This document shows, one piece after another, positions 16,778-39,901 of a stretch of DNA of 64,000 nt; position 1 is the first letter of the stretch, and each line of letters starts with the position of its first letter. A model generated the notes under the pieces. That model saw nothing but the letters and a program-made list of their open reading frames with translations, ran no database searches and was not told the DNA's origin. A program made the translations under genes and the position numbers. The stretch is from Anaerolineae bacterium (GTDB taxonomy: Bacteria > Chloroflexota > Anaerolineae > Anaerolineales > UBA6663), in NCBI GenBank assembly GCA_037442085.1, contig JBBIQY010000002.1:6583-70582 (forward strand). Reading direction: 5' to 3'.

Positions 16778-16804
16778 AGGAGAGTGGAGCTTGAGGAGCG
16801 CCCC

Positions 16805-18352: not shown

Positions 18353-18402
18353 ATCGCTCAAACGCTGACGACGCTGATGACGCTGAAAACCAGTGCTTCA
18401 GT

Positions 18403-18780: not shown

Positions 18781-18830
18781 TTGCCTCTCCACTCTCAGCG
18801 TCCTCAGCATAATCAGCGCCTCAACGATAT
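18773..18830 (+). repeat. Family B element (AACGCTGATT-loop-TCAGCGTCCTCAGC-ataaTCAGCG)
   Basis: aacgctgattgcctctccactctcagcgtcctcagcataatcagcgcc shares both ends with 7271-7310. Confidence 0.6.
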
Positions 18831-18843
18831 CAAAGGACCCGGC

Positions 18844-21732: not shown

Positions 21733-21780
21733 AGGAAGAAGGAAGCAATGGAGATTCAGCCTTCATCCTTCAGCCTTCAT
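21722..21780 (+). repeat. Perfect 15-bp inverted repeat (ATGAAGGCTGAAGGA / TCCTTCAGCCTTCAT) bracketing a gene junction
   Basis: The left arm (21722-21736) contains the upstream TGA. The loop holds a purine-rich SD and ATG 21748. The right arm (21766-21780) lies in codons 7-11 of the next gene and is half-duplicated at 21755-21766. Confidence 0.85.
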
Positions 21781-24328: not shown

Positions 24329-25039
24329 TCAAAGGGCGGGTTTGCGGGCCGAGTGGATCGCCATCGTGCCCAGCATCCACCACTCCACACGCACCGAGAC
24401 GAAACCGGCGGTTTGCAGGCGCTCAGCCAACGCTTCCGCCGAGAGGAAGCCCTCCGTCGACTCCGGCAGATAGGTGTAGGCCTCCGCCTGTCCGGCGATC
24501 AGCCGCCCCAGCGTGGGGATGACGGTGTGCAGGTGGAAGTCCACGAAGGGGCGCAGCCAGTTGTGCGGCGGCGGGGTCGTATCCAGGCAGACCAGGCGCC
24601 CGCCCGGCTTGAGCACACGCCATTGTTCCGCACAGGCGCGGTCCACGTCGCCCACGTTGCGCATCAGGTAGGCCGAGACCACCGCATCGAACGTGGCTTC
24701 AGGGAAGGGCAGGTTGAGGGCATCGGCGCCCGACCAGCGCGGTTGCCGCCCACCGGGCCGGCGCTGCCCGACGCGCATCATCGCCAGGGTGAAGTCGCCG
24801 CCCACCACACGCAGGCCGGGTGTGCGCGCCAGCGCAGCCAGCGCCAGGTCGCCGGTGCCGGTCCCGAGATCGAGCAGGGCCTGGCCGGGGCCAAGCGCGG
24901 CCAGCTCCAGGACGCGCGCCCGCCAGCGCCTGTCCTGGCCGAACGTCATCAGCCGGTTCATCAAGTCATAGCGCCCGGCGATGCGGGTAAAGACGCCGCG
25001 GACGTATTCGGCCCGGGCGCTGCCCCTCAAATGCGCCAT
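24329..25039 (-). CDS. ubiE: Demethylmenaquinone/ubiquinone C-methyltransferase
   Basis: VFTRIAGRYDLMNRLMTFG and the LDLGTGTGD SAM motif. Its ATG overlaps the menA-like stop (TAATG). Confidence 0.85.
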   Translation of the reverse strand: MAHLRGSARAEYVRGVFTRIAGRYDLMNRLMTFGQDRRWRARVLELAALGPGQALLDLGTGTGDLALAALARTPGLRVVGGDFTLAMMRVGQRRPGGRQPRWSGADALNLPFPEATFDAVVSAYLMRNVGDVDRACAEQWRVLKPGGRLVCLDTTPPPHNWLRPFVDFHLHTVIPTLGRLIAGQAEAYTYLPESTEGFLSAEALAERLQTAGFVSVRVEWWMLGTMAIHSARKPAL

Positions 25040-26052
25040 TAGAGAATGTGCCACGCGCGCAGTAGCAGATCGCCGATGAGGCCGAGCAGGAACAACAGGC
25101 CGAAGCGCCGGTTGTGCTGGAAGGCGAAGGCGACGAACCAGAGCGGCCAGATGCCTTTGGGGAAGAAGTCCGGCGGCGCTGCCGGCTTGGGCTGGCGATA
25201 GACGCGGCTGACGAGCAGGAAGGTGGACGTCGCCAGGAAGACGATCAGCAGCGCCGGCGTGAAGAAGCCGGTCAACACCTGATACACCACGACGACGTAC
25301 TGCAGCGCCATCATCCCGAGCACGGTATAGCGCGAGGTCTGTTCGCCCAGCAGCACCGGCAGCGTGCGGATGCCCTTCGATTTATCCACGGCATACTTGT
25401 CAATATGCTTGCCGAAGATCACGCCCGTGACGCCCAGGGCGTAGGGCAAGCCCGCCAGCACCACGTTCCAATCCCACCGACCGGTGACCATGAAGTAAGT
25501 GCCGCCGATCATCAACGGCCCCCAGACCACGATCACGGCGATCTCGCCCAGGCCGATGTACTTGAGCGGGAAGGTATAGAAGAGAACGAAGAACGCGCCC
25601 GCGCCAAGCAGGCTCCAGGCTAACACCGGCTCGGACGCGGTGAACATCAGGTACAAGCCAATGATGAGCGCTGCGCCGCCGGTGACGGCGACATAGGCCA
25701 GCACCTGGCGCAGAGTCATCAGGTTGTGCGCCAGTGGGTGCGGGCCGTACTGGACGCGGAAGTAGTTGTTCTTGTCCACACCCTTCCAGTAGTCGGTCAG
25801 GTCGTTGAGCAGGTTGTTGGTGGCGTGGGCCAGCATCAGGCCGAGCGTCACCAGCGTCCATTGCACGCCGTCGAAGAGGCCGGCCCGCAGAGCCAACAGC
25901 CCGCCGATGGCTGCCGAGATAAAGGTCATGATGAGCACCTGGGCGCGCGTGGCGATCAGCCACTTGGCGACGACGTCGAGGCCGTTCCATTCCTCGGGCT
26001 CCATGCGCGCCACTACGCCGCGCAACGCTTTGCTCCACATCGTTGGGTTCAT
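25039..26052 (-). CDS. menA: UbiA-family prenyltransferase, MenA-like (1,4-dihydroxy-2-naphthoate prenyltransferase)
   Basis: Polytopic protein with Asp-rich NNLLNDLTDYWKGVD and GKHIDKYAVD. The track N-terminal extension overlaps the kinase gene, so ATG 26052 is used. Confidence 0.75.
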   Translation of the reverse strand: MNPTMWSKALRGVVARMEPEEWNGLDVVAKWLIATRAQVLIMTFISAAIGGLLALRAGLFDGVQWTLVTLGLMLAHATNNLLNDLTDYWKGVDKNNYFRVQYGPHPLAHNLMTLRQVLAYVAVTGGAALIIGLYLMFTASEPVLAWSLLGAGAFFVLFYTFPLKYIGLGEIAVIVVWGPLMIGGTYFMVTGRWDWNVVLAGLPYALGVTGVIFGKHIDKYAVDKSKGIRTLPVLLGEQTSRYTVLGMMALQYVVVVYQVLTGFFTPALLIVFLATSTFLLVSRVYRQPKPAAPPDFFPKGIWPLWFVAFAFQHNRRFGLLFLLGLIGDLLLRAWHIL

Positions 26053-26089
26053 GGTGTTTTCTCCCGGTTGCGAACGCCCGAAGATTCTA

Positions 26090-29000
26090 TCATTCAGTGG
26101 GCGAGCCGCCGCCTGCCGTCGGGTTGCCCGTCGCCGGCGGTTCACCCGCCGCCGTGAGCGGCAACCAGACGGTAAAGGTGGTGCCCGTCTCCGGCGTGCT
26201 CTCGACACGGATCAGGCCGGCATGTCGCTCGACGATCTCCTGGACGATGGCCAGCCCCAGGCCGGTGCCCGGCTCGCCGGACTCCTGTGCATTCCGACCG
26301 CGGAAGAACCGGGTGAATAGGTGCGGCAAATCTTCGGGCGGGATGGGCGGGCCGTCGTTGTGCACGAAGATGGCCAGGCCTTCCTGCTCATTCTGGAACT
26401 CGCGCCGGGCGCCAACAGACACACGTCCGCCGCGCGTCGTGTAGGCGACGGCATTGCCGATCAGGTTGTTGAACAACTGCATCATTTGGGACACATCCAC
26501 CGATACGAGCGGCAGGTCGGCCCTGGCTTCGTGGTGGAGTACGACCTGGCGCTCTTCGGCGCGCGAGCTTTGCAGGGCCAACACGTCGGCCAGCAACAGT
26601 TCGATCGAATGCGGCTCGCGGTTGAGCGGCCGGGCCTGGCTGTGCAACCGCGATAGATCGAGCAGGTCTTCGATCAGACGGTGCAGGCGCTGGGTCTCGC
26701 GCTGCAGAATGGGCAGGTAACGCGGCAGCAAGTCCGCGCCGCGCCGCTCCAGCAGGCCCAGGTGCAGTTTGATGGCGGTGAGCGGGGTGCGCAGCTCGTG
26801 TGAGACGTTGGACACGAAGCGGTCCTTGAGCCGGTCCAGTTCCTTGAGGCGTTCGTTGGCCTCGGCCAGTTCACGGGTGCGCGCCGCCACGCGCTGCTCC
26901 AGCGTCTCCAGGAGGCGCGCCCGCTGGAGGGCATTGCCGCCGACCTCGGCAATGGTGGTCAGCAGGCGCAGGTTGGCTTCGGTGAAGACGCGGGGCGCGG
27001 GCGCATACACGGCCAGCACCCCCGTCAGCGCATCGCCCAGACGCAGCGGCGCATACATGGCGCAGCGCGCGCGCGGATCGGGCCAGGGCCAGGCCGCGGC
27101 GTCCGTCGAGGTAATTTCGGCCAGGCGGGATGTTCCGGAAGCGATCACTTGATCGAGGAGAGTCTCGTCGAGGGCCTGGCCACCCGGTTCATGACCGTCC
27201 ATCAGGCCGATCTGGCTGACGACGACGAGCCGGCCGGCCCCTTCCGCAGGCGCGATGACGCACACGGCCTCCGCGCCGATGACGCGCTGGCTGCGCTCCA
27301 ACAGAAAGTGGAGCACATCGGACGTACTTTCCGCCGAGCGCAGGGCGGCGGAGACATCGGTCAGCGCCTCCAGCTCGGCGGTACGCCGGAGCGTCTCGTC
27401 CAGCAGGCGTTCTTTTTGCACCGCCAGGGCCAGGGCGTCTGCAATCTGACCGAGCAGGTTCGTGTTCAGGCGCGCGTAGCCGTTTGGCGCCGGCCAGAAC
27501 AGGCAGAGCAGGCCGGTCACCTGCGCGCTGTCGCGCAACGGCCAGATCAGGCAGGAGGTGTAGGTATTCTGCCACAGGGTTGAGTCCAACAAAGGTGGCG
27601 ACGCGCTCAGATCGGGCACGAACAGAGGCTGGCCGGATAACACCGAGGCCGGCACCCGATCTTCACTGAGGGGCAGGTGCAATACGCTCTCGCCGTTCAG
27701 CGGAGTCTGATCCATGCCCACCAGGTCGAGACGCCGACGGTCCGCGCTCAGCGAGAACATGCAGACGCAGACGCATTGCGTCAGTTGTTTGAGATCGGCA
27801 GCGATGGCAGGGAAATCCTGCAAGACGCGCGGCGTGACGCTCAGCGTGCGGAGCAAATCGCTGGCCACGGCTAGTTCGTCGGCATTGCGGCGGGTCTGAT
27901 GGAACAGGCGCGTGCGCGCGATGGCCAGCGCGACCTGACGGGCGGCCTGTTCATTGTGCTGACGCTCGTGCGGCTGAAAGGGATGAGGGAAGGGGTAGAC
28001 GATGAGCGCTGCGCCCAGCTTCTGATCGCCGGCCAGCAACGGCAGGGCCAACACGGTGGAGCGCGGCAAATCCGAGGTCGCGGGCGACTCAAAGTAGGAC
28101 GAGGCCCACGTATCTTCGACGATGAGTGTGTAGCCGGTGCGCAACACCGCCTGGCTCAGCGCCAGGAAGCCGGCGGCCTCTGCCCGACGCGCGGCGCCGT
28201 ACGCAGCTGCCGGCACAGGTTGTTGGCGCTGTTCATCCCACAGGTCGAGGTAACAACCGGCGGCGCCGGCCAATTCGCCCAACCGCTCCGCGAGAGTTTG
28301 CACCAGGTCCGGCAAGCTCTCGATGGTGACGGCGGCCTGCGTGATTTCGTTGAGCAGGGTGAGGTGATAGACCTGGCTGGCCTCGGTTTCGAACAGGCGC
28401 GCGTTCTGCAGGGCGAGCGCCACCGACACACTGGCCGCGCGCAGCAGGGGGATTTGCTCCTCCGGCAGGAAGTGGGGCCGGTCACTCATCAGGCTTAACA
28501 CGCCGACCAGCTCGTCACCGGCCAAAAGCGGCAGCGCCAGGCCGGCGCAGATGCCATCATCCAGGATGGGCAGGTGAACCCAGTGAGGATCCTGGGTGAC
28601 GTCTCCGGCCAGCACGGGCTGACGGATCTGCGCCGCGTAGCCACAGATGCCCTGACCACGCAGGAGGCGGATGCCGGCTAATTGCTCCGGCGGGATGTCG
28701 GCGTAGCCGTACAGGCGCACGGGTCGCAGGTCGCCGCTTTCCAAATCAGCGGTGAAGACGGCGGCCCTGATCGCGCCGGTGGTAGCGCACATGAGGGCCA
28801 TGGCCCGGTACGCCACTTCCTGTGGGTTGAGGGTGGAGGCCAGGCTTTGGCTGAGGTTCAAGAGCAGTTCAAGCCGGCTTTTCTCCTTGCCCACGGCACC
28901 CAGCAGGCGCACATTCTCAATTGCAATCGCTGCCCGGTCGGCAAACAGGTGAAGGATATCCACGTCCGCTTCGCTGAAGCGCTGCGGCCGCTCATCCAGC

Positions 29001-32000
29001 AGGACGAGCACGCTCAACAACTGGGCGTGCCACTTGATGGGCAGGCCCAGGGCCGAACGCGGCGCCGGCGTCAGCCTGCCTTCCGGGCCGTCGCGCAGGC
29101 GGACATCGTCGTGCCAGACCAGGGTCTGACGGGTAGCCACAACTTCGCCGGCCAGCCCGGCCCCCCTCCCTCCTTCGGCGGATAGGGGGTAGGTTCGCCC
29201 CAGCTCCCAGGCCGGCAGGCCATACGTGGCCGACAGGACCAGGTAAGAGGTTTCTGCCTGATAGGTGTACAACGCGCCCGAATGAATATCGAGCAGACGG
29301 GCCGCGCTCGAGAGCAACAACGGCAGCAGCTCCGGCAATGTTAGCTGCGCGCTCAACTCCAGGCTGAGAGCGTGCAATTCGGTCAGGGCAGCCACGCGGC
29401 GGCGCTCGGTCTGATAGAGCTGGGCGTTCTGCAGCGCCAGCGCGGCCTGCCCCGCGAAGGCGGCCAGGCGCTCGGCGTGTTTGGGCTGATAGAAATTCGG
29501 CTCGGCCTTGTCGAGCTGGAAAAAGGCGACGACGCGGCCCTGCGCGATGACCGGCGCGCCGGCGAACGATCGCACATGAGCCAGCGGCTCGATGAGGATC
29601 CAGCCGGGATAATCCTGCGTATTCGAGATGACGAGGGGCTGCCCGCTCTCGGCCATGTGGTGAAGCGTTGGCGTCGTGTTCAGGTCGAAGCTAAGATTGC
29701 GCATCGCTTCCACCGCCGCAACGCCGAGCTTCTCGTAACCGCGCTGTCGCGCCGGCCAGGCGCGCCCCTGCGCCGCATCCACCAGGAACACGCTGGCCGA
29801 GTCGAACGGCAACACGCCGGCGATCTGATCGAGAAAACGGTCGAGGACGGCGTCGAAATCGAGGTTGGCGCTGAGGGTGAGGGCGGCTTGGCGCAGGGCC
29901 TCGGCCAGTTCGCGCTGTTCGCGTTCGGCCTGAAACAGTCGGCCATTTTCGATGGCAACGGCAGCCTGGTCGGCGATGGCGCGCAACAGGCGCAGATCGC
30001 TGTCCGAAAACTGGCGCTGCGATGCATTGAGATACACTTCGAGCAAGCCCACCGTGCGTCCGCCCACCCGCGCCGCCAGCATCAGGAGCGAGGCGTAGTT
30101 CAGGCGCCGCAACAGGGCGATTTCAGCCGCGTCGGCGGTCGCCTCCGCCACGTTGACGCGCACGATCTCGTCACCTTCGACGACCCGAGCAGTCAGCGGG
30201 TAGTCGGCTAGCGGAAAGGTGGTCTCCGGGTGGTACGCACCTTTTGGCCGGCCCGCAGCGTAATTACCCAGGGTGGTGACGGTGTGCTCCACCGGATCGT
30301 AGCTTGAGAGCGCACAGGCCTCGACCTCGAAGGCCTGGGTGACGGCGAGCGCGACTTCGTCCATGACAGATCGTAATTCGAGGCTCGATGACACCATCCG
30401 GGCGACGTTGAGCAGGATGGTCAGCTCGCGTTCGCGCTGACGCGTCTCCTCCAAGAGACGCAAACGCTCCAGCGTAGCCGCCGCCTGATTGGCGAACGCC
30501 ATTATCGAGGCAGCGTCGGCAGACGAAAACTGGCCGGCCAGCTCGCCATCCACATTCAGAATGCCGGCGACCTGGTCGCGGATCATGATCGGAGCGCCGA
30601 TCCAGCAGCGGATATACTCGGTGCCCGCCACCGGCCGCCAGAGCGGATGCTCCGAGGCCCGATCCAGGATAAGCGGCCGGCGGTTGCGCAGCACCGTGGC
30701 GATGGTGGGCCAATCGTCCGGCTGTAAAGGGGAAAACTGTTGCGCCGCCGTGCGGAAGCCGCGCTGCGCGACCAGGTGCAATCGGCCGCCCTGTAGCAGC
30801 ATGACGGAGGCGCTGGCAAACGGCATCAGGTCGTGCAGTAGTTCGAGCAGGCGCTCTAACAGCGTGTCACGATCCAGCGTGACGTTAGCCAGGTTGGCGA
30901 CTTCACGCAGAGTCTCGGCTTGCCGGCGTGCGGCGCGTTCGGCCTCCAGCAGTCGCGCCTTCTCAAAGGCCAGCGCCAACTGGCCGGCCACCGTGGTCAG
31001 CAGCCGCTCATCGCGCTCGCTGAAGGCGTTCAACCGGTCGCTTGCCACATCCAGCACGCCGATCAAGCGATCGCCGCTTCTCAGCGGCACGCACAACTCG
31101 GAACGGATAGAGGGATGCCCCAGCCGATAGTCGGGGTCGTGGCTGACGTCCCCAACGCGCGCCGCCAGGCCGGTGCTCGCGACCCGGCCCGCGATCCCCG
31201 CACCGACCGGCACGCTGTAATTCATGTCTGTCTTCAGTCCACGGTAGGAGGGGTGTGGGTTCAATCGCACGCCGGCTGCATCGAGCAGCATCACACCATA
31301 GAGGCGAGCCGGGATAGCCTGACCGATGAGTCCGGTAGTGCGGGCAATCAATTCGTCGGAGGTCAGGCTTTCGGTCCCGGCCACGGCCACCGAATGCAGC
31401 AGGGTCAATTCTTCCAGTTGCGAGCGCACGGCATCGAACAGGCTGGCGTTTTCGATGGCGGCGGCCGCCTGTTCGCCCAACAGGCGGAGAATGCGCAACT
31501 CGGCCTCGGTCGCCTGGCGCGGCTCGGCGTACAAGATAACCATCACGCCCACAACGCGCTTTCCATACTTGAGCGGCAGGCCGATCACCGCCCCGCTCCA
31601 GGCCGGCTGAACATCGGCAAACAAGGGGTGTGAGCGGGTATCGGAGACGATCAACGCTTCGCCCGAACGGGCGACGGTGTACGTGACCCCACGGGGCCGC
31701 GGCGGCGGCAACTCAATGGCCCGGCCGGCGCTATCCAGGGCCGCGCCGAAGTCCAGGCGTCCGTGGTCGTACAGATAAATGCTCGTTCGCTGCAGACCAG
31801 GCAGCAGGCGGAGGGTCCCTTCGAGAATGGCGTTGAGGACGACCGGGAGGTCGAGGCTGGAAGTCAGGCTAAGGCTGGCGGCGCGAACGGCCTCCAGCTC
31901 GGCGGCGCGGCGCTCGGCGGCTTGGAACAGACCGACGTTGCGCAGAGCCAGCGCCATATGGCCGGCAAAGGCCGCCAGCCAGCGCGCATGCTGCGGTTGA

Positions 32001-33958
32001 TAAAAGCCCGGCTGCCCATGCTCCACGGAGAGGAATGCCACACACGCGCCCTGCACCATTACCGGCGCGCCGGCCCAGGCGCGCAGATAGGCGCTGGCGG
32101 CGGTAGGCTGCCAGTCAGGATCGGCGGCCACATCGCCGATGACCAGCGGCTGGCCGGTCTCTGCCATCCGCCGCAGATTCGCGGTGCGTTCGACCTCCAG
32201 TCGCACCGCACGCACCTGCTCCGCCACCCCCGGGCCGAGCTGCTCATAGCCGCGCAGTCCGGCCAGGCGCGCGACGCCACTTTCCACCAACAGCGCGCAG
32301 GCGGCGTGGTAGGGCACGACGCGCGCTACATGGCTCAGCAGCCGATCCAGCACGACCTCGATGTCGGCATCCACGGCTAGCGCCAGGCCCACATCGCGCA
32401 GCGCCTCGGCCAGCGCACGCTGCTCACGCTCGATTTCGAGGGCGCGCTGCTTTTCGATGGCCATGGCCAACTGGGCCGCCACCGTCGTCAGCAGACGTTC
32501 GTCAGCGGGGCTGAAGGCGTTCAGCCGCGGGCTTTCCATGTTGAGCACGCCGATGACTCGCTCGCCGATCTTCATCGGCACCGCCAGCTCCGAGCGCGTG
32601 GTGGGGCTCAGTTCGAAGTAGTCCGGGGATTTGGAAACGTCGCCTAAGCGGCGCGGCTGTCCGGTGGCGGCCACATTGCCCACAAGGCCCTTGCCGAGCG
32701 GCAGGATGAAATTGCCCTGTTCTGACACGCTTTGCTTCGGGTACAGGTTCAGGGTTTGCGTCTCCGCGTCCAGCAACATGATACCCAGCCCCTGCGTCTC
32801 GAACATCGGGTTGATGATCTCCATCACCCTCTCGGTCAGCTCGTCAATCGAGGCAGACTGGGTGGCAACCAGCGAGACGGCGTTGAGCAGCATCAGCTCG
32901 CGCAACTGGCGTTGAGAAGTTTCGAAAAGCTGCTGCCGTTGAATGGCGGTGGCCAGCTGATCAGCGAGCGCTTCAGCGAGCTGTAGGGTGAGCGGCGCGA
33001 AGGGCCTCCCGGAGCGCGCGTTATCCAGCGCGAGCACGCCGATCAGCGTCGTCTCCGACCAGATCGGCACGAGCAGCGTTTCGCTGGGCGCGAGGGCGGT
33101 CAGCCAGTGCTCGGGCAGCGCTTCTAGGATTTGGGTGACCGTGAGGCGGAGCGGCTGGCGGTGATGACGGATTTGTTGGGCGAACGGCGCGGTTGCCGCA
33201 TCGAGAGGGCCGAGAGACTCAAAAAACACCCGGTCGGCGGCCTGTGAAAACGCCACGGGACGAAAGGCGTCGAGATCCGGATCGTGGAGGAAGAGCGCGC
33301 AGCGGTCGCATTGCATCCACCCTGGCAACTGGCTGACCAGCGTCTGCGCCAGATCGGCCACACGGTTGGTGGACTGCGCCACGCGGGCCACCTCCAGTAA
33401 TATGCGTCGCGCCTCGGCGTCGCGCTTCTGCGCTTCATACAGTTGAGCGTTGATGAGCGCGGTCGCCGCCTGGTCGGCAAACGTGCTCAACAGCTCCAGA
33501 TCGCTCTGCCCGAACTGTACATGACGGGTCTTGCTATCTACATACAAGACGCCCAGCGGCCGGCCCTGGCGGTGCAGCGGCACGGCCATGATCGAGCGGA
33601 GCAGATAGTTGATCACCGACGCTTTGCTGGTGAAGCGCGGGTCCTTCTGGGCGTCGAAGGTGACCACGGGCTGGCCGGTGCGGATCACCTCCTGCACCAC
33701 CGAGCGGCTGATTTCAGAGGCCTCCTCGGTCAGCGTCTCGCCCTGAACACTGCGCGCCACGCGGAAATGGAACTCGCCCGACGGCTCATCGAGCAGCATG
33801 AGGAAACCGCGCTCCGCCCTGCTCAGGCGAATCGCCGAGTCAATGACGATGATCAGCGCCTCTTCCAACTCCAGCGAGGAGTTGAGCACGCGGGAGACTT
33901 CGTATAAAGCGGCTAGCCGATCACGGGCCGCGGGTTGGGCCGCCTCGCGCAACGACAT
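26090..33958 (-). CDS. Giant cytoplasmic sensor histidine kinase with ~14 tandem GAF-like modules + HisKA + HATPase_c
   Basis: 14 recurrences of the GAF-terminal helix pattern F(S/T)xxDxxLLxxxAxQxAxAIENAxL. FVSNVSHELRTPL (H-box). N/G boxes NLIGNAV and GTGLGLAIV. ATG 33958 has GAGG upstream, and the TTG 33997 alternative would overlap the tRNA promoter. Confidence 0.85.
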   Translation of the reverse strand: MSLREAAQPAARDRLAALYEVSRVLNSSLELEEALIIVIDSAIRLSRAERGFLMLLDEPSGEFHFRVARSVQGETLTEEASEISRSVVQEVIRTGQPVVTFDAQKDPRFTSKASVINYLLRSIMAVPLHRQGRPLGVLYVDSKTRHVQFGQSDLELLSTFADQAATALINAQLYEAQKRDAEARRILLEVARVAQSTNRVADLAQTLVSQLPGWMQCDRCALFLHDPDLDAFRPVAFSQAADRVFFESLGPLDAATAPFAQQIRHHRQPLRLTVTQILEALPEHWLTALAPSETLLVPIWSETTLIGVLALDNARSGRPFAPLTLQLAEALADQLATAIQRQQLFETSQRQLRELMLLNAVSLVATQSASIDELTERVMEIINPMFETQGLGIMLLDAETQTLNLYPKQSVSEQGNFILPLGKGLVGNVAATGQPRRLGDVSKSPDYFELSPTTRSELAVPMKIGERVIGVLNMESPRLNAFSPADERLLTTVAAQLAMAIEKQRALEIEREQRALAEALRDVGLALAVDADIEVVLDRLLSHVARVVPYHAACALLVESGVARLAGLRGYEQLGPGVAEQVRAVRLEVERTANLRRMAETGQPLVIGDVAADPDWQPTAASAYLRAWAGAPVMVQGACVAFLSVEHGQPGFYQPQHARWLAAFAGHMALALRNVGLFQAAERRAAELEAVRAASLSLTSSLDLPVVLNAILEGTLRLLPGLQRTSIYLYDHGRLDFGAALDSAGRAIELPPPRPRGVTYTVARSGEALIVSDTRSHPLFADVQPAWSGAVIGLPLKYGKRVVGVMVILYAEPRQATEAELRILRLLGEQAAAAIENASLFDAVRSQLEELTLLHSVAVAGTESLTSDELIARTTGLIGQAIPARLYGVMLLDAAGVRLNPHPSYRGLKTDMNYSVPVGAGIAGRVASTGLAARVGDVSHDPDYRLGHPSIRSELCVPLRSGDRLIGVLDVASDRLNAFSERDERLLTTVAGQLALAFEKARLLEAERAARRQAETLREVANLANVTLDRDTLLERLLELLHDLMPFASASVMLLQGGRLHLVAQRGFRTAAQQFSPLQPDDWPTIATVLRNRRPLILDRASEHPLWRPVAGTEYIRCWIGAPIMIRDQVAGILNVDGELAGQFSSADAASIMAFANQAAATLERLRLLEETRQRERELTILLNVARMVSSSLELRSVMDEVALAVTQAFEVEACALSSYDPVEHTVTTLGNYAAGRPKGAYHPETTFPLADYPLTARVVEGDEIVRVNVAEATADAAEIALLRRLNYASLLMLAARVGGRTVGLLEVYLNASQRQFSDSDLRLLRAIADQAAVAIENGRLFQAEREQRELAEALRQAALTLSANLDFDAVLDRFLDQIAGVLPFDSASVFLVDAAQGRAWPARQRGYEKLGVAAVEAMRNLSFDLNTTPTLHHMAESGQPLVISNTQDYPGWILIEPLAHVRSFAGAPVIAQGRVVAFFQLDKAEPNFYQPKHAERLAAFAGQAALALQNAQLYQTERRRVAALTELHALSLELSAQLTLPELLPLLLSSAARLLDIHSGALYTYQAETSYLVLSATYGLPAWELGRTYPLSAEGGRGAGLAGEVVATRQTLVWHDDVRLRDGPEGRLTPAPRSALGLPIKWHAQLLSVLVLLDERPQRFSEADVDILHLFADRAAIAIENVRLLGAVGKEKSRLELLLNLSQSLASTLNPQEVAYRAMALMCATTGAIRAAVFTADLESGDLRPVRLYGYADIPPEQLAGIRLLRGQGICGYAAQIRQPVLAGDVTQDPHWVHLPILDDGICAGLALPLLAGDELVGVLSLMSDRPHFLPEEQIPLLRAASVSVALALQNARLFETEASQVYHLTLLNEITQAAVTIESLPDLVQTLAERLGELAGAAGCYLDLWDEQRQQPVPAAAYGAARRAEAAGFLALSQAVLRTGYTLIVEDTWASSYFESPATSDLPRSTVLALPLLAGDQKLGAALIVYPFPHPFQPHERQHNEQAARQVALAIARTRLFHQTRRNADELAVASDLLRTLSVTPRVLQDFPAIAADLKQLTQCVCVCMFSLSADRRRLDLVGMDQTPLNGESVLHLPLSEDRVPASVLSGQPLFVPDLSASPPLLDSTLWQNTYTSCLIWPLRDSAQVTGLLCLFWPAPNGYARLNTNLLGQIADALALAVQKERLLDETLRRTAELEALTDVSAALRSAESTSDVLHFLLERSQRVIGAEAVCVIAPAEGAGRLVVVSQIGLMDGHEPGGQALDETLLDQVIASGTSRLAEITSTDAAAWPWPDPRARCAMYAPLRLGDALTGVLAVYAPAPRVFTEANLRLLTTIAEVGGNALQRARLLETLEQRVAARTRELAEANERLKELDRLKDRFVSNVSHELRTPLTAIKLHLGLLERRGADLLPRYLPILQRETQRLHRLIEDLLDLSRLHSQARPLNREPHSIELLLADVLALQSSRAEERQVVLHHEARADLPLVSVDVSQMMQLFNNLIGNAVAYTTRGGRVSVGARREFQNEQEGLAIFVHNDGPPIPPEDLPHLFTRFFRGRNAQESGEPGTGLGLAIVQEIVERHAGLIRVESTPETGTTFTVWLPLTAAGEPPATGNPTAGGGSPTE

Positions 33959-33984
33959 AGAGACCTCTACGCCCAATAGATTTC

Positions 33985-34013
33985 TTGACCGAGCCAAGCG
34001 TATACGCTAGAAT
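33985..34013 (+). promoter_or_regulatory. Near-consensus sigma-70 promoter for tRNA-Gly
   Basis: TTGACC (33985-33990), 17 nt spacer, TAGAAT (34008-34013). The mature tRNA 5' end is 13 nt downstream. Confidence 0.7.
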
Positions 34014-34331: not shown

Positions 34332-34718
34332 ATGCCGGAGACCCATATCTTGTACATTGAAGACAATGCCGACAACCGCACCCTGGTCAAGCGCGTGCTG
34401 GAAGCTGCCGGCTACCGGGTCAGCCTGGCTGCGGAAGCACAATCCGGGCTGGCCGAGGCGGTGCGCAGCCGGCCGCAGATCATCCTGCTGGACATCAACC
34501 TGCCGGAAGTGGATGGCTATACGTTGACCACACGCCTGCGCGCCACGGCCGGGCTGGAGAACACGTGCATTATTGCCCTGACCGCGAATGTCATGAAAGG
34601 CGACCGTGAGCGTACGCTAACCGCCGGGTGTAACGGTTACATTCAGAAGCCGATTGACGTGGATGCGCTGCCCGATCAGGTCGCGCGTTATCTGGCCCAG
34701 CACCGCAAAGCAACCTGA
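34332..34718 (+). CDS. Single-domain response regulator (CheY-like receiver)
   Basis: ILYIEDN...IILLDINLPEVDG...ALTANVMKGD...GYIQKPI. Confidence 0.85.
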   Translation: MPETHILYIEDNADNRTLVKRVLEAAGYRVSLAAEAQSGLAEAVRSRPQIILLDINLPEVDGYTLTTRLRATAGLENTCIIALTANVMKGDRERTLTAGCNGYIQKPIDVDALPDQVARYLAQHRKAT

Positions 34719-34739: not shown

Positions 34740-35180
34740 ATGAAACTCATGCCAACTCCGCCTCACACTCGCGAACCCGTCAACCCCAAAGACGCGACCG
34801 TGCTGATCGTCGAAGACAACGTCTCCAACTTTGTGCTGATGGCCCGCATGTTGGCGTATATGGGCGTGCCGCGCTGTGAATGGAAGACCTCGGGCTGGCA
34901 GGTGGTGGAATTCGCCGACACCCTGCCGCGCATTGACCTGATCATCATGGACATCCGGCTGCCCTACGAAGACGGCTACGCGGCACTCTCTAAAGTGCGC
35001 GCCACCCCCAAGCTCAAGGAGACGATCGTCGTGGCCGTGACCGCCGAAGCCACTCTGGAGCAGTTGAACCGGGCGCGCGCTGCCGGCTTCGACGGCTTCC
35101 TGGGCAAACCCCTTGACCCAGATCGCTTCCCCGACCAGATCCGGCGTTTGCTGCGCGGCGAGCCGGTCTGGGAACAGTGA
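34740..35180 (+). CDS. Single-domain response regulator (receiver), second copy
   Basis: VLIVEDN...LIIMDIRLPYEDG...AVTAEA...GFLGKPL. Confidence 0.8.
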   Translation: MKLMPTPPHTREPVNPKDATVLIVEDNVSNFVLMARMLAYMGVPRCEWKTSGWQVVEFADTLPRIDLIIMDIRLPYEDGYAALSKVRATPKLKETIVVAVTAEATLEQLNRARAAGFDGFLGKPLDPDRFPDQIRRLLRGEPVWEQ

Positions 35181-35198: not shown

Positions 35199-37025
35199 AT
35201 GACCAGTCAGCCGCCCCTGTCCCCCCGGCCTACAGCCAGCGGCGGGTTGGCGCGCAGTCTGCTCTGGCTGGTGCTGCCGCTCACTCTCGCGCCGCTTCTG
35301 GTCGCAGCCTATGGCTTCTATCGTCAGGCGGAAGCCGAGCTTGACCGCCGCCTCACCACACAACTCGATACGCTGGTCAACGCCAAACTAGCGCAAATTC
35401 GACAATGGACGGACCAGCAGGTCACGGTCCTTGACGTGCTGGCGCGCGACATCGCGCGGGAGACAATCACCCCGGAAACAGCCGCCGCTCTGCGCCCGCA
35501 ACTGGCCGCGTTCCTCGATGCAAACCCGGCTTATAAGTGCCTCCTCATCGTTGGCGTCACCGATGGCGCCGTCTGGCTCAATGAGGGCGCTGCGCCAGCA
35601 GCGGCGATGTCCTTCTCCGAGAGCTTTCTCCAGCAAGTAAAGTATGAACCGCAGTTCCTGACGCCGCGCTTCTGGCCGGAGCTGGACGCGCAGGTCGTCA
35701 GCCTGGTCGCCACTACGCCCATCGCACCAGCCGAGCAGAGTGCGGTGGCGATCCTGGTCGGCGTGCTACGCCATGAGCCGCTGCTGCGAATCGTCGCGCC
35801 GGCGCCCGGCCTGGGAGCGACCGGCCAGGCCTACCTGGTCAGTGAAGACGGTTACCGCGTCGGCGTCCAGATCATGTCGCCGCGCGCCCGTCCGCGAAGC
35901 GAGACGATACGCCGCGTGCTCGATCAGGCCAGCAGCGGCGGAGGCTTCTACGCCAACCCGGAAGGGGCGACCGTCGTCGGGCGTTACGCCTGGCTGAACG
36001 AACAGCGGCTGGCGCTGTTCGTGGAGCAAGAGTGGGCCGAAGCTGCAGCGCCGCTCGAAAACACGCTGTGGATACTGGGGGCGGTGACCCTGAGCAGTAG
36101 TGTGCTGGTGGTTGTGGTGAGTACGTTCTTCACCCGGCGTCTGACCCGACCCATCCGCGCCTTGACTAACAGCGCCGCGCGCATCGCCGCCGGCGATCTG
36201 ACAGCTCAAGTGGAGATCGAACGCAGCGACGAACTGGGCCTGCTGGCGCAAGCCTTCAACCGCATGAGCGAAGACCTGCGGATTTCCTACCGGACGCTTC
36301 AAACCACCGCTGAGTGGCGCGCCCGACAATTGACGATCACAGCGGAGATGAGCCGCGTCGCCGCTGCCCATCGCAGCCTGGCCCAATTGCTGCCAGAAGT
36401 GACGGCCCTCATCCAGCATCATTTTGGTTACCATGGCGTGCTGGTTTTCCTGACCGATGAGACAGGTCAGTCGTTGCGGCTGCACACCGAACACTATGCG
36501 TCGGTGGCCAGCGGCCGTCCAGCAGGACCAAAGGCCCATCCCCTCACCATCGAGATCGAGTCTGGCTCATTGCCGGGCCACGTTGCGCGCAGCCGTTCGG
36601 CGCGCACAGCCGCTCAGGTGGAAGCCCCGCCCCTGCACCGGCTAGACCCGCGCCTGGCCGAATTCCAATCGGAGGCAGCCCTGCCCTTGACCGTCGGCGA
36701 GCGCCTCATCGGCGTCCTGGTCTGCCTCAGCCGCGAGCCCGACGCCTTCTCAGGCGCAGACTTCGACATCCTGCAAACGCTGACCGATCAGGCCGCCGTG
36801 GCGATCGAGAACTGCCAGCTCTTCGAGCGCCAGCAGAGCCTCTTACGCCTGGAGGAACTGGTACTCACGCTCTCGACGAAAGCGCACCGCTCCCTGAAAG
36901 CCGAGACCATCCTCGAAAGCACCGCTGTGGAGCTGGGCCGAGCGTTGGGCGCGCGCCGGGCCATCGTGCGCCTACAGGGCGGCAGCCCAGGTAACGGCCA
37001 GACGCTGGAGACGGACCCGAAATGA
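35199..37025 (+). CDS. Membrane sensor protein: TM - extracytoplasmic (Cache-like) domain - TM - HAMP - GAF, no output domain
   Basis: HAMP motif RPIRALTNSAARIAAGDLTAQVEIERSDELGLLAQAFNRM. GAF end FSGADFDILQTLTDQAAVAIENCQLF. GGAGGAGG SD. Confidence 0.8.
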   Translation: MTSQPPLSPRPTASGGLARSLLWLVLPLTLAPLLVAAYGFYRQAEAELDRRLTTQLDTLVNAKLAQIRQWTDQQVTVLDVLARDIARETITPETAAALRPQLAAFLDANPAYKCLLIVGVTDGAVWLNEGAAPAAAMSFSESFLQQVKYEPQFLTPRFWPELDAQVVSLVATTPIAPAEQSAVAILVGVLRHEPLLRIVAPAPGLGATGQAYLVSEDGYRVGVQIMSPRARPRSETIRRVLDQASSGGGFYANPEGATVVGRYAWLNEQRLALFVEQEWAEAAAPLENTLWILGAVTLSSSVLVVVVSTFFTRRLTRPIRALTNSAARIAAGDLTAQVEIERSDELGLLAQAFNRMSEDLRISYRTLQTTAEWRARQLTITAEMSRVAAAHRSLAQLLPEVTALIQHHFGYHGVLVFLTDETGQSLRLHTEHYASVASGRPAGPKAHPLTIEIESGSLPGHVARSRSARTAAQVEAPPLHRLDPRLAEFQSEAALPLTVGERLIGVLVCLSREPDAFSGADFDILQTLTDQAAVAIENCQLFERQQSLLRLEELVLTLSTKAHRSLKAETILESTAVELGRALGARRAIVRLQGGSPGNGQTLETDPK

Positions 37026-39901
37026 CACCGCCGTCCGAATCGCGCCCCCATGCGCAGCGCAATGTGCGCCGGATCGGGCGTCTGTTGCTGGTCATCGCCG
37101 CCCTGATTGCCGGAGTGGCCCTCGTCCTGTATCTGGGCGAGGGCGGGCCAGCCGCAGCGCTCCCCGTGCTAGCTGCAGCCGGCGTCGCGATCATGACGGC
37201 GCTGATCAGTCTGAGTCTCAACGCCGCCAGTCGAACCCGCAGCGCCGCCTGGTTGCTGGCCATCTTCGTGATGCTGGCAGCGCCGGGCGCAGTCGCTCTG
37301 TTTGCCAACATCGGCGTGCCCAGCAGCATCCTGCTCCTGATCGCCGTCGGCGCGATCGCCAGCCTGAGCCTGGCCGGGTCCGAGGCGCGCACCATGATCC
37401 TGGCCGGCGTGGCCGTCAGCGTGACGACCCTGAGCCTGGATCTGCTCCTCGAGTCGAATGCGCTCTGGCCACGCCTGACGCTGCCCGACTGGTTTCAGAA
37501 CGGCGCCCTGCCCGTCTTCACGACCGGCGTAATCGCGTTGTTTGGGGTTTTGCTCTGGCGCCAGTTTCCGCGCTACCGCCTGAGCAGCAAACTGTTGTTG
37601 GGCTTCCTCTTTGTGGCGCTGGCGCCGCTCATCCTCACGAGTTGGCGCACCGACCAGGCCCTGCGCGCCAGCCTGACCCGTACCGTCAACCAATCGCTGG
37701 TGGTCGCTGCCTCGCGCACCGCCGCCGACCTCGACAGTTTCCTCACCGCCAACCGTCTCGCCATCTCCGGGCAGGCGCGCCTGCCGCTGTTGAGCGAGTA
37801 CCTGCGCCTGCCCGCCTCCGAGCGTTCGGCCAGCCCCCTGACGCAGCAAACGCGTGACCTGCTCCTCTCCCTGCTGACCGCGCCCGGCCAAGGCGCCCTG
37901 GCCACGGGCCAGACGCGCAACACCTCAGCCTACTTCCTGTTCGATGCCAGCGGCGACCTGGTGTTGAGCACGACCTCCGGCGCGGCCCTTGAGCCGGCCC
38001 AGGCGGAGGCCATCTTCCGAACGCCGTTGGAGACCGGAGAGGCTTACCTCTCGCCCGTCTACTATCGCGGCTCGACCGGCGCTTTTTACCTGGCTGTGCC
38101 TGTTGCCGAACCGGGGGGTACGCCCCTCGGCGTGCTGGCGGCCGAGGTCAACTCGGCCTGGCTCCAGCGCCTCATCCAACTCAACCGGGAGCCGCTCGGG
38201 CCGGGCAGCGAATCGGTGGCAGCCCTGTTCAACGAGGACGGCCTGCGGCTGGCCGACAGCGCCGCCGCCGGCACCAATGCATTGCGGTTCGCCGCGCTGC
38301 CGGCAGCGCCGGACTTGAACAACTTACTGACCCTGGGACGCGCGCCGGCGCGCACGCCGGCCGAGCTGGACGCGCAATTACCGGCGCTGGCGGCGCGGCT
38401 GGCGGACGCCCGGCAGACCGACCAACCGACTTTCTTCGAAGGCCTCATCCACTATGCCGACGACCCTGCCGAGCCGGAGCCGCGCCACTTTGCCGTATTA
38501 CTACCGCTACGCAATGCGCCGTGGATCGTCCTGACATCGCAACCGGAACCGGTGGCCCTGGCTCCGGTGCGCGCTCAGACCCGTACAACGATCCTGCTGG
38601 CGCTGGTCGCCGCCCTGGCTGTGACAGGCCTGTCGGCGATCGCTTCGCGCAACCTGACCCAGCCCATCGTCAGCCTGACCCGGGCGGCAGAGCAGGTGCG
38701 CAGCGGCGACCTTTCCGCGCGCGCGACGCCCGCCGGCGACGATGAGATCACCCAACTCATCAAGACGTTCAACGCCATGACGAGCCAACTGCAAGACACC
38801 CTGAACCGGTCGGAGCAGTTGGTGGCGGAACGCACGGCGCAGCTCCAGGCCACCGCCGACATCAGCCGCGCCACCGCCGGCATCCGCAACCTGAACGACC
38901 TGCTTGAGCTGGCGCTGGAGATGATCCGGGGCCGGTTCGGGTTTTATCACGCTTCGGTCTTTTTACTGGACGACGCCGGCGAATATGCCGTGCTGCGCGA
39001 ATCCACCGGCGAAGTGGGCGCACAGCTAAAAGCGCAAGGGCACCGGCTGGCGATCGGCTCGCGCTCGCTGGTAGGCTGGGTGACGCAGAACCGGCGGCCG
39101 CGCATCGCCCGCGACGTGGCCGACGACCCGTTCCACTTCAAGAACCCGCTGCTGCCCGAGACACGCTCCGAATGCTGCCTGCCGTTGCTGGTCGGCGACC
39201 GCCTGCTGGGGGCGCTCGACGTGCAGAGCCGCGAGCGCGACGACTTCAACGAGAACGACCTGCAGGCGCTGCAGGTGCTGGCCGACCAGTTGAGCATCGC
39301 CATCGAAAACGCCTCCCTCTTCCAGCGCACGCAGGCCGCGCTCGCGGAAGCCCAATCGCTCTACCAGCAGACCCTCAACACCAGTTGGCGCAACACGGCC
39401 ATCGAGCAGAACCTGCTCCCGCGCACCCTGGTCTACGATCTGGAGCCGGGCGGCGCCGAGAGCGACAACCCGATTCAGGTGCCGCTACGCCTGCGCGGCC
39501 AGCTCATCGGCGTGATCGAACTGCATGGGCGGCCCGAGGAGCGGCCGCTCAATGCGCAGGAGCAGGCCGTGCTCGAAACCATCGCCGCGCAAATCGCCTC
39601 GGCGCTGGAGAGCGCGGCGCTCTTGCAGGAAAGCCAGGCCCGCAGCCGGCGCGACCAGCTCATCACCGCCATCACCGACGAGATGCGCTCGTCCCTGAAC
39701 CCGGCCTTCATCGTGCAAAGCGGCATCCGCCAGCTGGGCCGTGCGCTCGGCGCAACCGAGGTCACCCTGCGGCTGCAACCCAAGCCCATCGCCAAAGACT
39801 CGCCCGACATCACACTGCCCAGCGGCGATGGAGAAGCGGGTAGCGCTCCTTCGCAGCCAGCTCCGCTGGCGCCGCCAGCTTCGCTTGCGCATGGGTCATG
39901 A
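37022..39901 (+). CDS. Polytopic membrane sensor: multi-TM - extracytoplasmic domain - HAMP - 2 GAF, no output domain
   Basis: ATGA overlap with the upstream gene. HAMP motif QPIVSLTRAAEQVRSGDLSARA..DEITQLIKTFNAM. GAF ends FNENDLQALQVLADQLSIAIENASLF and LNAQEQAVLETIAAQIASALESAALL. Confidence 0.8.
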   Translation: MTPPSESRPHAQRNVRRIGRLLLVIAALIAGVALVLYLGEGGPAAALPVLAAAGVAIMTALISLSLNAASRTRSAAWLLAIFVMLAAPGAVALFANIGVPSSILLLIAVGAIASLSLAGSEARTMILAGVAVSVTTLSLDLLLESNALWPRLTLPDWFQNGALPVFTTGVIALFGVLLWRQFPRYRLSSKLLLGFLFVALAPLILTSWRTDQALRASLTRTVNQSLVVAASRTAADLDSFLTANRLAISGQARLPLLSEYLRLPASERSASPLTQQTRDLLLSLLTAPGQGALATGQTRNTSAYFLFDASGDLVLSTTSGAALEPAQAEAIFRTPLETGEAYLSPVYYRGSTGAFYLAVPVAEPGGTPLGVLAAEVNSAWLQRLIQLNREPLGPGSESVAALFNEDGLRLADSAAAGTNALRFAALPAAPDLNNLLTLGRAPARTPAELDAQLPALAARLADARQTDQPTFFEGLIHYADDPAEPEPRHFAVLLPLRNAPWIVLTSQPEPVALAPVRAQTRTTILLALVAALAVTGLSAIASRNLTQPIVSLTRAAEQVRSGDLSARATPAGDDEITQLIKTFNAMTSQLQDTLNRSEQLVAERTAQLQATADISRATAGIRNLNDLLELALEMIRGRFGFYHASVFLLDDAGEYAVLRESTGEVGAQLKAQGHRLAIGSRSLVGWVTQNRRPRIARDVADDPFHFKNPLLPETRSECCLPLLVGDRLLGALDVQSRERDDFNENDLQALQVLADQLSIAIENASLFQRTQAALAEAQSLYQQTLNTSWRNTAIEQNLLPRTLVYDLEPGGAESDNPIQVPLRLRGQLIGVIELHGRPEERPLNAQEQAVLETIAAQIASALESAALLQESQARSRRDQLITAITDEMRSSLNPAFIVQSGIRQLGRALGATEVTLRLQPKPIAKDSPDITLPSGDGEAGSAPSQPAPLAPPASLAHGS

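Follow-up and report, generated by a model that had tools for sequence, protein, structure and literature searches.

The window, by which we mean the whole 64,000-nucleotide stretch of DNA from an Anaerolineae bacterium that was analyzed here, raises the question of what is encoded at 26090-33958 on its minus strand, where a single gene specifies a long chain of GAF domains followed by one histidine kinase-type core, and of how such a chain came to be. The answer that we consider probable is a 14-GAF cytoplasmic HisKA-type sensor built on a helical spine, with ancient paralogs among its modules and with GAF2, GAF3 and GAF9 swapped in from an ortholog resembling the database protein P0006. Its sequence marks 26090-33958 as a conserved and functional gene, from an uncultured member of the Anaerolineales (Chloroflexota), and the product is a predicted soluble class I (HisKA) histidine kinase-type sensor, uncharacterized and of an already known sort, the multi-GAF histidine kinase-type proteins. 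Three features make it stand out: an apparently phase-locked 16-residue connector in a family with 7-18 GAFs, module-precise recombination between orthologs, and a clade-wide non-canonical G1 box.

The minus-strand open reading frame (ORF) spans 26090-33997, and translation from the ATG at 33958 yields 2,622 amino acids, an exact match to database protein P0001, for which there are two source contigs, one from NCBI (123.8 kb) and one from Logan (35.2 kb). The Logan contig, L001, and the window (G+C content 62-68%) are colinear over 22.2 kb, and the gene on L001 translates to the same 2,622-residue query. A database search returned 1,144 relatives at E <= 1e-10, the named ones coming from Anaerolineales, Anaerolineae, Chloroflexi/Chloroflexota or Roseiflexaceae metagenome bins, and those with a source name being annotated just as 'GAF domain-containing protein'. 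Proteins P0002-P0012 are 53-72% identical to the query and have 14 GAFs each, with the exception of P0010 (41% identity, 88% coverage, 13 GAFs). We regard the gene as real and under selection because of these full-length 14-GAF orthologs, the ratio of nonsynonymous to synonymous substitution rates (dN/dS) of 0.10-0.40 for every module (Nei-Gojobori, measured against the clade with which each module groups), and module-specific conserved signatures. None of the NCBIfam named equivalogs (NifA, PtsP, PnpS, WalK and others) scored above its curated cut-off over the whole protein, the best matches being NifA (196.7 bits against a cut-off of 528.9) and PnpS (191.3 bits against 400), and a promoter and terminator scan around the gene gave nothing better than shuffled sequence. 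The literature searched, with incomplete coverage, contained no paper on poly-GAF kinases of Anaerolineae, which is weak evidence of novelty.

Modules, connectors and a predicted helical spine

Pfam identified 14 stretches each for GAF and GAF_2 and 11 for GAF_3, and whole-protein scores of 601.8 bits for PF01590 (cut-off 22.4) and 628.4 bits for PF13185 (cut-off 28.6) place the protein in the GAF family. These stretches are followed by one HisKA domain (residues 2378-2440, 67.1 bits, cut-off 26.9) and one HATPase_c domain (residues 2488-2602, 95.6 bits, cut-off 26.4). A hidden Markov model iterated on the protein itself (self-HMM) likewise delimited 14 full-length modules, and the original prediction of about 14 GAF modules ahead of a single HisKA/HATPase core was thus borne out. 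The lack of a transmembrane segment, also proposed there, agrees with the hydropathy profile, in which no membrane helix was found: the best 19-residue Kyte-Doolittle windows reach no more than 1.78, contain Asp or Glu and fall in GAF strands. The features of the gene, all on the minus strand and with the GAF modules bounded by the self-HMM, are the following.

26090-33958, minus: poly-GAF histidine kinase-type gene, 2,622 amino acids, stop codon included
33449-33907, minus: GAF1, residues 18-170; most conserved module, 65-83% identity to orthologs
32936-33400, minus: GAF2, residues 187-341; first module of recombinant tract A
32450-32887, minus: GAF3, residues 358-503; GAF6 paralog, in recombinant tract A
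31937-32401, minus: GAF4, residues 520-674; paralog of GAF9 and, more distantly, GAF7
31448-31888, minus: GAF5, residues 691-837
30959-31399, minus: GAF6, residues 854-1000; GAF3 paralog
30464-30910, minus: GAF7, residues 1017-1165; distant paralog of GAF4 and GAF9
29945-30415, minus: GAF8, residues 1182-1338
29426-29896, minus: GAF9, residues 1355-1511; GAF4 paralog, the module of recombinant tract B
28913-29377, minus: GAF10, residues 1528-1682
28403-28864, minus: GAF11, residues 1699-1852
27914-28354, minus: GAF12, residues 1869-2015
27413-27871, minus: GAF13, residues 2030-2182; least conserved module
26921-27364, minus: GAF14, residues 2199-2346
26639-26920, minus: GAF14-to-HisKA/DHp connector, residues 2347-2440; predicted single 80-residue helix, has ARTREL
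26780-26803, minus: H box SHELRTPL, phospho-acceptor His at residue 2387; invariant in orthologs
26153-26497, minus: HATPase_c catalytic domain, residues 2488-2602; N box and G2 box intact
26438-26467, minus: N box
26252-26269, minus: G2 box
26342-26362, minus: non-canonical G1 box HNDGPPI, residues 2533-2539; from ungapped alignment to HK853 and VicK
32429-33466, minus: recombinant tract A, residues ~165-510, GAF2 and GAF3; nearer clade B (P0006) than its own clade A
29414-29941, minus: recombinant tract B, residues ~1340-1515, GAF9; nearer clade B

The connectors between modules are the most conserved part of the repeat. When gaps were counted only where both flanking modules match the self-HMM end to end, 12 of the 13 junctions in the window protein had a gap of 16 residues in this framing, and the GAF12-GAF13 gap is not measurable in this way because the start of GAF13 is poorly matched by the model. 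Among 120 homologs, the 16-residue gap was present at 981 of 1,112 GAF-GAF junctions; the other lengths were 20 (n = 25), 23 (n = 56), 30 (n = 8), 34 (n = 3), 41 (n = 24) and 13 residues (n = 1), together with 14 gaps of >140 residues in which another domain intervenes. The main increments over 16 (+4, +7, +14, +18 and +25) are near whole helical turns or heptads, as predicted for a continuous helix of conserved phase, and heptad-phased linker lengths are a known rule for S-helix connectors. The junction consensus reads ...LL..LA.QAAVAIENARLFEEERRRAAELEALNEVS.AL.S.LDL.EVL, with hydrophobic positions spaced 3-4 apart and a strongest tested period of 3.5, and the consensus of the inter-GAF connectors is N-A-R-L-F-E-E-E-R-R-R...E-L...L.

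Monomer models were built by AlphaFold2 with ortholog alignments for residues 1-1181 (predicted local distance difference test score, pLDDT, 81.6) and residues 1850-2622 (pLDDT 78.5). Continuous helices of 42-46 residues were predicted at eight inter-GAF junctions altogether, comprising single helices of 43-46 residues at junctions 1-2 to 6-7 in the first model and helices of 46 and 42 residues at junctions 12-13 and 13-14 in the second, in which the GAF14-to-DHp connector is an 80-residue continuous helix. The S-helix has been described as a helix of ~40 residues with an ERT signature that lies between a sensor domain and a DHp domain (PMC1592074). The GAF14-DHp connector fits this description, given its 80-residue predicted helix and the ERT of the ortholog consensus (...RVAERTRELA...), which is ART in the window protein (AARTRELA); the 13 inter-GAF connectors differ from an S-helix in that they are without ERT. 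The suggestion that so long a GAF chain forms a rod-like scaffold gains support from these data, in that both the fixed connector length and the predicted continuous helices back a phase-locked rod.

We propose that the protein, like DHp domains in general, forms a parallel homodimer in which neighboring GAFs would be joined by one uninterrupted helix of 42-46 residues. This helix would comprise the last helix of one GAF, the constant 16-residue linker and the opening helix of the following GAF, and the 14 GAF pairs would be carried on a single unbroken coiled-coil spine leading into the DHp helix. A ligand or redox change in at least one GAF would shift the register or rotation of this spine and thereby set the kinase/phosphatase balance of the core, and the output would pass to two single-domain response regulators encoded divergently next door. 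Modules advance by ~4-5 nm along the spine in tandem-GAF and phytochrome structures, and at 4-5 nm per module the dimer would be roughly 55-70 nm long.

The modules themselves are conserved to very different degrees, with the fraction of strongly conserved positions falling from 0.64 in GAF1 to 0.22 in GAF13. As regards the other suggestion of the original prediction, that so long a chain would serve many ligands, distinct signatures are kept among the orthologs, for example FE.SRSVVQEV..G..VVTLDAQ.DPRF in GAF1, PRP.GLTYTVAR.GE in GAF5 and GQG..G.AAQ.R.PV in GAF11, and these module-specific signatures, together with the low dN/dS values, argue against the modules being pure, interchangeable spacers. 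The first strand of GAF13 has an odd C-V-C-V-C run (residues 2062-2066; 27761-27775, minus strand) that is not kept in the orthologs.

The kinase core and its G1 box

The core has the hallmarks of a HisKA-type kinase, namely a DHp domain with the H-box histidine His2387 within SHELRTPL, which is invariant in the orthologs, and N, F and G2 boxes (NLIGNAVAYT, FTRFFRG and GTGLGL) that align to those of HK853 and VicK. The HK853 (Thermotoga maritima) and WalK/VicK cores are 32-33% identical to it (E = 3e-36 for the alignment, ungapped across the G1 region), and in Foldseek they rank next after the bacteriophytochromes; where they differ is the G1 box. In place of the canonical D-x-G-x-G, the window protein has HNDGPPI, whose ungapped counterparts are EDNGIGI in HK853 and SDQGLGI in VicK, such that the canonical Asp is replaced by Asn and the second Gly by Pro (N-D-G-P-P). 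This motif was not mentioned in the original prediction, nor was recombination at the level of modules. Asn occupies the G1 position in 33 of 110 homologs from the first search, including all syntenic orthologs, versus D-x-G-x-G in the other 77, and in 65 of the 120 closest cores (query included), among them nearly all above ~50% identity. The glycines that follow are degenerate in other Asn-type G1 boxes as well (NDRPV, NSAPV and KNWPAV), and relatives further away have the canonical box. The G1 Asp contacts adenine in GHKL ATPases, and an Asp-to-Asn change at this position abolishes ATP binding in Hsp90, so that normal autokinase activity should not be assumed here. Conversely, the invariance of the Asn and the intact state of the other motifs argue for a constrained pocket rather than decay.

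These observations bear on a rival account in which the protein is a scaffold, a phosphatase or a pseudokinase, and the GAF chain is chiefly a structural rod of set length. In this account there would be no ATP-dependent autophosphorylation, and the protein would act as a phosphatase, a phosphotransfer partner or an organizer for the neighboring hybrid kinase and the response regulators that the two would share. The invariant Asn-type G1 box that marks the whole clade of cores at ~50% identity or more is in its favor, as are the canonical G1 box of the neighboring hybrid kinase (DTGQGI), the strictly fixed connector length and the retention of His, Glu and Thr in the H box (HELRT), residues which serve phosphotransfer and phosphatase activity. 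However, the N, F and G2 boxes are intact and conserved in a domain that matches HATPase_c at 95.6 bits, an Asn that is invariant and not decayed suggests a working nucleotide pocket, and it would be unexpected for mere spacers to each keep their own signature and a low dN/dS. On balance we consider this account rather unlikely, and continue with the reading of the protein as a HisKA-type sensor.

Origin and exchange of modules

The original prediction held that the array grew by internal segmental duplication, and nucleotide and protein self-comparison did identify repeats above background. When the protein was queried in chunks by self-BLAST, the best pair was GAF3 and GAF6 (residues 351-500 versus 847-997, 48% identity, E = 5e-41), followed by GAF4 and GAF9 (residues 501-650 versus 1336-1487, 41-42% identity, E = 8e-36), with a weaker relation between GAF4 and GAF7 (29% identity, E = 8e-16) and with E-values of 1e-5 to 1e-16 for the remaining pairs. 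The first pair corresponds to the likeness noticed earlier between ~32,440-32,620 and ~30,950-31,130, which spans whole modules and not the terminal helix alone, and the second to that between ~31,870-32,430 and ~29,370-29,935. At the DNA level the best off-diagonal match was 30954-31090 versus 32443-32581 (76% over 140 nucleotides, E = 5e-21), and further matches were 29723-29927 versus 32234-32432 (66% over 206 nucleotides) and 29425-29563 versus 31936-32074 (70% over 142 nucleotides). The antisense peptides ANWAATVVSRRSSAGLKAF and ANWPATVVSSRSSRSLKAF, whose similarity had also been pointed out, are present, but they are a by-product of the sense-strand similarity read in reverse.

Profiles were also built for each module position from 11 orthologs and all 91 pairs were compared profile to profile. 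GAF3-GAF6 (343) and GAF4-GAF9 (390) scored highest, GAF7 scored 181-193 against GAF4 and GAF9, and the GAF background was 23-119; in an alignment of the 14 modules, identity to GAF1 was 17-27%. As such, duplication is demonstrable from these comparisons for only five of the 14 modules (3/6 and 4/7/9), in the pattern [3,4]~[6,7] plus 4~9, and the partners do not form one contiguous block. The 3-6 and 4-9 pairs are found in every 14-GAF ortholog at 34-57% identity, and since the orthologs are themselves 53-72% identical, the duplications predate them and do not reflect any recent expansion of this lineage's array. These alignments show modules 3/6 and 4/7/9 to be ancient paralogs; the earlier claim therefore stands for five modules as far as paralogy is concerned, but the duplications are old and the other nine modules are at GAF background. 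Within the family, GAF4 and GAF9 of P0011 are 57% identical, compared to 36-44% in the other orthologs.

Recent internal segmental duplication within this lineage, leaving many near-copy and probably redundant modules, is consequently very unlikely as the origin of the array and is largely refuted. Two module pairs are clearly more alike than the others, and the module orders 4-5-6 and 5-6-8 are repeated in P0023, P0026 and P0027, both of which speak for such growth, but the pairs are merely 41-48% identical and have a similar identity in all 14-GAF orthologs, the other nine modules differ from one another as much as unrelated GAFs do (17-27% identity, profile scores 23-119), and the module number stays at 14 in orthologs down to 53% identity.

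Module number does vary among more distant relatives, as a comparison proposed in the original prediction revealed: there are 7-18 GAFs in the 60 best-listed of the 1,144 homologs, and 12, 14 or 16 at the loci that were checked. Every module of the window protein pairs best with the module at the same ordinal position in the orthologs. Modules 7-8 are missing from P0020-22, modules 3-5 from P0025 and modules 12-13 from P0015, and extra 7-like and 11-like modules are present in P0013, P0014, P0016 and P0018. The window gene shares its chromosomal locus with the 12-GAF P0022 and the 16-GAF P0018: P0022 is followed downstream by UbiE, a small Flp-like ORF and a metallophosphoesterase, and P0018 by these and UbiA-family genes. 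Based on the shared downstream genes, P0022 and P0018 are positional orthologs with different module numbers. Flanking proteins put the P0022 genome between the window/P0002 pair and P0006, and from this position parsimony suggests a two-module loss in the P0022 lineage. The differences in the 11- and 12-GAF relatives look like changes of whole modules. Unequal crossing-over between paralogous modules was considered as their origin and is not supported, as no clear 3/6 or 7/9 hybrid was seen at the junctions in P0025 and P0020.

The relation of individual modules to the orthologs is not uniform along the window protein. Its gene mostly resembles those of clade A (P0002-5), with 63-86% identity versus 37-69% to P0006, a member of clade B (which includes P0006, P0007 and P0009), and this is reversed in three modules: GAF2 is 34-37% identical to clade A versus 77% to P0006, GAF3 47-50% versus 71%, and GAF9 50-53% versus 84%. 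The 77% in GAF2 exceeds the identity of P0006 to its own clade mates P0007 (59%) and P0009 (51%). In a codon-based sliding comparison, the tracts at residues ~165-510 and ~1340-1515 had 63-85% nucleotide identity to P0006 versus 44-77% to P0002, and outside the two tracts P0002 was nearer than P0006. The ratios of informative sites supporting clade A to those supporting clade B were 86:42 for residues 1-160, 86:259 for 175-505, 571:214 for 520-1330, 43:134 for 1345-1515 and 816:241 for 1530-2622, and the best breakpoints fell near residues 139, 510, 1346 and 1498, in or adjoining terminal helices and connectors. Neighbor-joining bootstraps grouped the window with clade A in 200/200 replicates for GAF4-8, GAF10 to the end and the pooled rest, and in 193/200 for GAF1; they grouped it with clade B in 195/200 for GAF2-3 and 200/200 for GAF9, as sister of P0006 in 200/200 and 133/200, respectively. 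In a median polish with pair and module effects, GAF2 and GAF9 of the window-P0006 pair were the strongest outliers of 675 cells (-11.5 and -10.8 robust standard deviations). Flanking proteins also ally the genome with clade A (UbiE 86%, metallophosphoesterase 91%, versus 72% to the P0006 genome).

The simplest reading of this pattern is that the gene is a recombinant, in which a P0006-like ortholog would have given two non-contiguous patches to a clade A gene. The tracts are ~75-80% identical to P0006 DNA, which implies that the event is old or that the true donor is unsampled. Other anomalies were noted in the family, in that GAF10 is unusually uniform within clade B (P0006/7/9, 87-89%) and GAF4 of P0009 is unusually divergent from its clade; these and the GAF4-GAF9 pair of P0011 hint at recurrent module conversion or exchange.

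We judged it highly unlikely that the mosaic reflects rate heterogeneity, with GAF2, GAF3 and GAF9 fast-evolving or replaced in clade A and the window and clade B retaining the ancestral state. GAF2 is indeed the fastest-evolving module in every comparison, and synonymous divergence (dS) between the window and P0006 in the tracts (0.82-1.30) is not clearly below that elsewhere. Nonetheless, the window is nested within clade B as the sister of P0006 in the bootstraps given above, which faster evolution of clade A alone cannot explain, and the W-A2 dS climbs from 0.57-0.87 to 1.04-1.47 in exactly GAF2, GAF3 and GAF9. It is scarcely credible that faulty assembly, through a chimeric contig or a collapsed repeat, produced the mosaic or the giant ORF. 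Assemblers can be misled by repeated modules, and the sequence does come from a metagenome-assembled genome, but it counts against such an error that the modules share at most 76% nucleotide identity over 140 nucleotides, too little to collapse or join reads, that the same product occurs on two contigs, the Logan one colinear with the window, that a chimera would require four junctions between sequences only 60-80% identical, and that the orthologs share length and module order.

Genomic neighborhood, known GAF systems and significance

Upstream of the kinase gene and divergent from it is a block of genes for regulators and sensors.

34332-34718, plus: RR1, single-domain response regulator, 128 amino acids, candidate partner; divergent, also at the P0006 and P0022 loci
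34749-35180, plus: RR2, single-domain response regulator, 143 amino acids, candidate partner; divergent, also at the P0006 and P0022 loci
35199-37025, plus: dCache-HAMP-GAF protein, no output domain
37022-39901, plus: dCache-HAMP-GAF protein, no output domain
39898-45687, plus: MASE11, 5-6-GAF hybrid kinase
45718-47385, plus: threonine-synthase-like PLP enzyme fused to a C-terminal receiver
47394-48410, plus: EamA transporter

The two dCache-HAMP-GAF genes and the hybrid kinase gene (35199-37025, 37022-39901 and 39898-45687) overlap by 4 nucleotides at each junction, and the regulator/Cache-HAMP-GAF/hybrid-kinase block is kept at the P0006 and P0022 loci, with the first sensor protein at the P0006 locus matching CHASE4 and not dCache_1. 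At the P0002 and P0018 loci the block is replaced by unrelated genes, which include an integrase in the case of P0018. On contigs L004 (1-9632) and L008 (1-7737) unrelated genes replace the region immediately upstream of the kinase orthologs, those on L008 including a phage-type integrase and a Rep_trans protein, and from these replacements the 5' boundary of the kinase gene appears to mark a point of rearrangement. Across the three genomes (window, P0006 and P0022) RR2 has 87-90% identity, compared with 70-79% for flanking housekeeping proteins; its 90% identity to the P0006 locus was considered as a sign of co-transfer with the swapped modules and rejected, since the value is 87-90% among all three loci. 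The two output-less proteins end in a similar short segment (36900-37025 and 39750-39901, plus strand; ...LGRALGARRAIVRLQ and ...LGRALGATEVTLRLQ) that follows the last GAF and a connector-like helix. These end segments look like the first helices and strand of another GAF, and are possibly a split or docking element.

UbiA-family and UbiE genes lie downstream on the same strand (24329-26052, minus), 37 nucleotides past the kinase stop, and no terminator-like site separates them from the kinase gene. The mechanical ORF 25039-26208 reaches into the 3' end of the kinase gene, but its called start is 26052. UbiE lies after the kinase gene, in the same orientation, in the window and in all four related loci checked (L002, L004, L007 and L008), whereas UbiA-family prenyltransferase genes occur in the window, L004 and L008 but not in L002 and L007. 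The distance to the next gene, 37 nucleotides in the window, 13 in L007 and a 4-nucleotide overlap in L008, is so small as to suggest co-transcription. UbiE acts in menaquinone-type biosynthesis. Near these quinone biosynthesis genes is a molybdopterin oxidoreductase gene set (15686-22716, plus) that comprises a ParA/NUBPL-type Fe-S assembly ATPase, a fused 4Fe-4S/NrfD membrane subunit, a 983-residue molybdopterin catalytic subunit and a NarJ-like chaperone.

It is important to note the points that weigh against the reading we favor. The AlphaFold2 models are monomeric and have low predicted template modeling scores (0.39-0.46), so that the relative placement of the modules, the overall shape and a straight rod are not established. 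The G1 box is without the canonical Asp and second Gly, which questions normal ATP-dependent autophosphorylation. Synonymous divergence is saturated (dS ~0.8-1.8) and gives no independent dating of the transferred tracts, and the P0002 and P0018 loci are without adjacent response regulators, so the proposed partnership is not universal.

The known systems that come closest share some features with the window protein and lack others. The best PDB sequence matches of the module profile were the tandem GAFs of CyaB2, PDE5 and PDE2A (1mc0, 3ibj, 3lfv and 1ykd), with E-values of 1.6e-28 for 1ykd, 2.5e-24 for PDE5 and 9e-22 for PDE2A, followed by the DevS GAF at 6e-19, and CyaB2 (1ykd) was also a structural match in Foldseek. 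In PDE2A and CyaB2 the helix that links the GAFs pairs with its counterpart in the dimer as a coiled coil, and such inter-GAF coiled coils have been described as poorly conserved (PMC1592074). The connectors here are, in contrast, strongly conserved in length and sequence, and where those systems have two GAFs and a phosphodiesterase or cyclase output, the window protein has 14 GAFs and a kinase-type core. The solved structure closest to GAF1 is a GAF of a Leptospira 'cGMP-specific phosphodiesterase' (5w10, E = 8e-14), then a PDE5 GAF, and GAF1 also resembles the N-terminal GAFs of NifA and PtsP below cut-off. We treat the likeness of GAF1 to cyclic nucleotide-binding GAFs as a lead only; the NKFDE signature (NK.{3,40}F.{3}DE) is absent from all 14 modules, with F-x3-D-E found only in GAF3 and GAF6.

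Bacteriophytochrome kinases (PAS-GAF-PHY-histidine kinase) were the top full-length Foldseek matches to the model of GAF12-14 and the core (8upk, E = 2e-22; 9eut, E = 4e-21), and their general plan is alike, with GAF-fold domains strung along a helical spine that leads into the DHp domain, although global TM-scores are low (~0.3). The protein is distinguished from phytochromes and cyanobacteriochromes in that Pfam found no PAS_2 or PHY match in it; five modules (GAF1, 3, 5, 9 and 10) have no Cys, and bilin-binding GAFs match the module profile partially, in the C-terminal part only. DosS/DevS and DosT of Mycobacterium tuberculosis are also soluble GAF-containing sensor kinases, which respond to redox or gas in a GAF-GAF-kinase arrangement, but they have two GAFs with heme in GAF-A and use a HisKA_3-type DHp domain, and no inference about a heme ligand is possible for the protein here. 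The largest characterized GAF array in the literature searched is PtxD (NpF2164) of Nostoc punctiforme, a cyanobacteriochrome whose seven GAFs differ in the input they sense and share a single output (PMC5812497). PtxD is a bilin-binding regulator of phototaxis, and the window protein differs from it in having twice as many GAFs, a kinase-type output and negative bilin checks.

Research on bacterial signaling has yet to explain how a signal that passes through many sensor domains reaches a single output. The systems studied have one to a few PAS or GAF domains, and the present family, with its 7-18 GAFs and near-invariant 16-residue connector, is a natural series in which modules have been deleted, inserted and swapped between species near module borders. 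With it, long-range transmission along a coiled-coil spine becomes directly testable, its connectors present themselves as natural splice points at which chimeric sensors could be engineered, and a sensor repertoire can evolve through exchange of cassettes and not solely by point mutation. A separate question, prompted by the clade-wide change in the G1 box, is whether such giant proteins really work as autokinases. A bolder proposal, to which we give little credence, is that the family consists of plug-and-play dimeric coiled-coil rods, tens of nm in length, with 7-18 GAF pairs in constant helical phase, whose modules are exchangeable between species and whose catalytic domain, with its invariant Asn where Asp would contact adenine, is not an ordinary ATP-driven autokinase but a phosphatase, a phosphotransfer hub or a domain using another nucleotide; if true, whole modules would be inserted, deleted and exchanged without breaking signal transmission.

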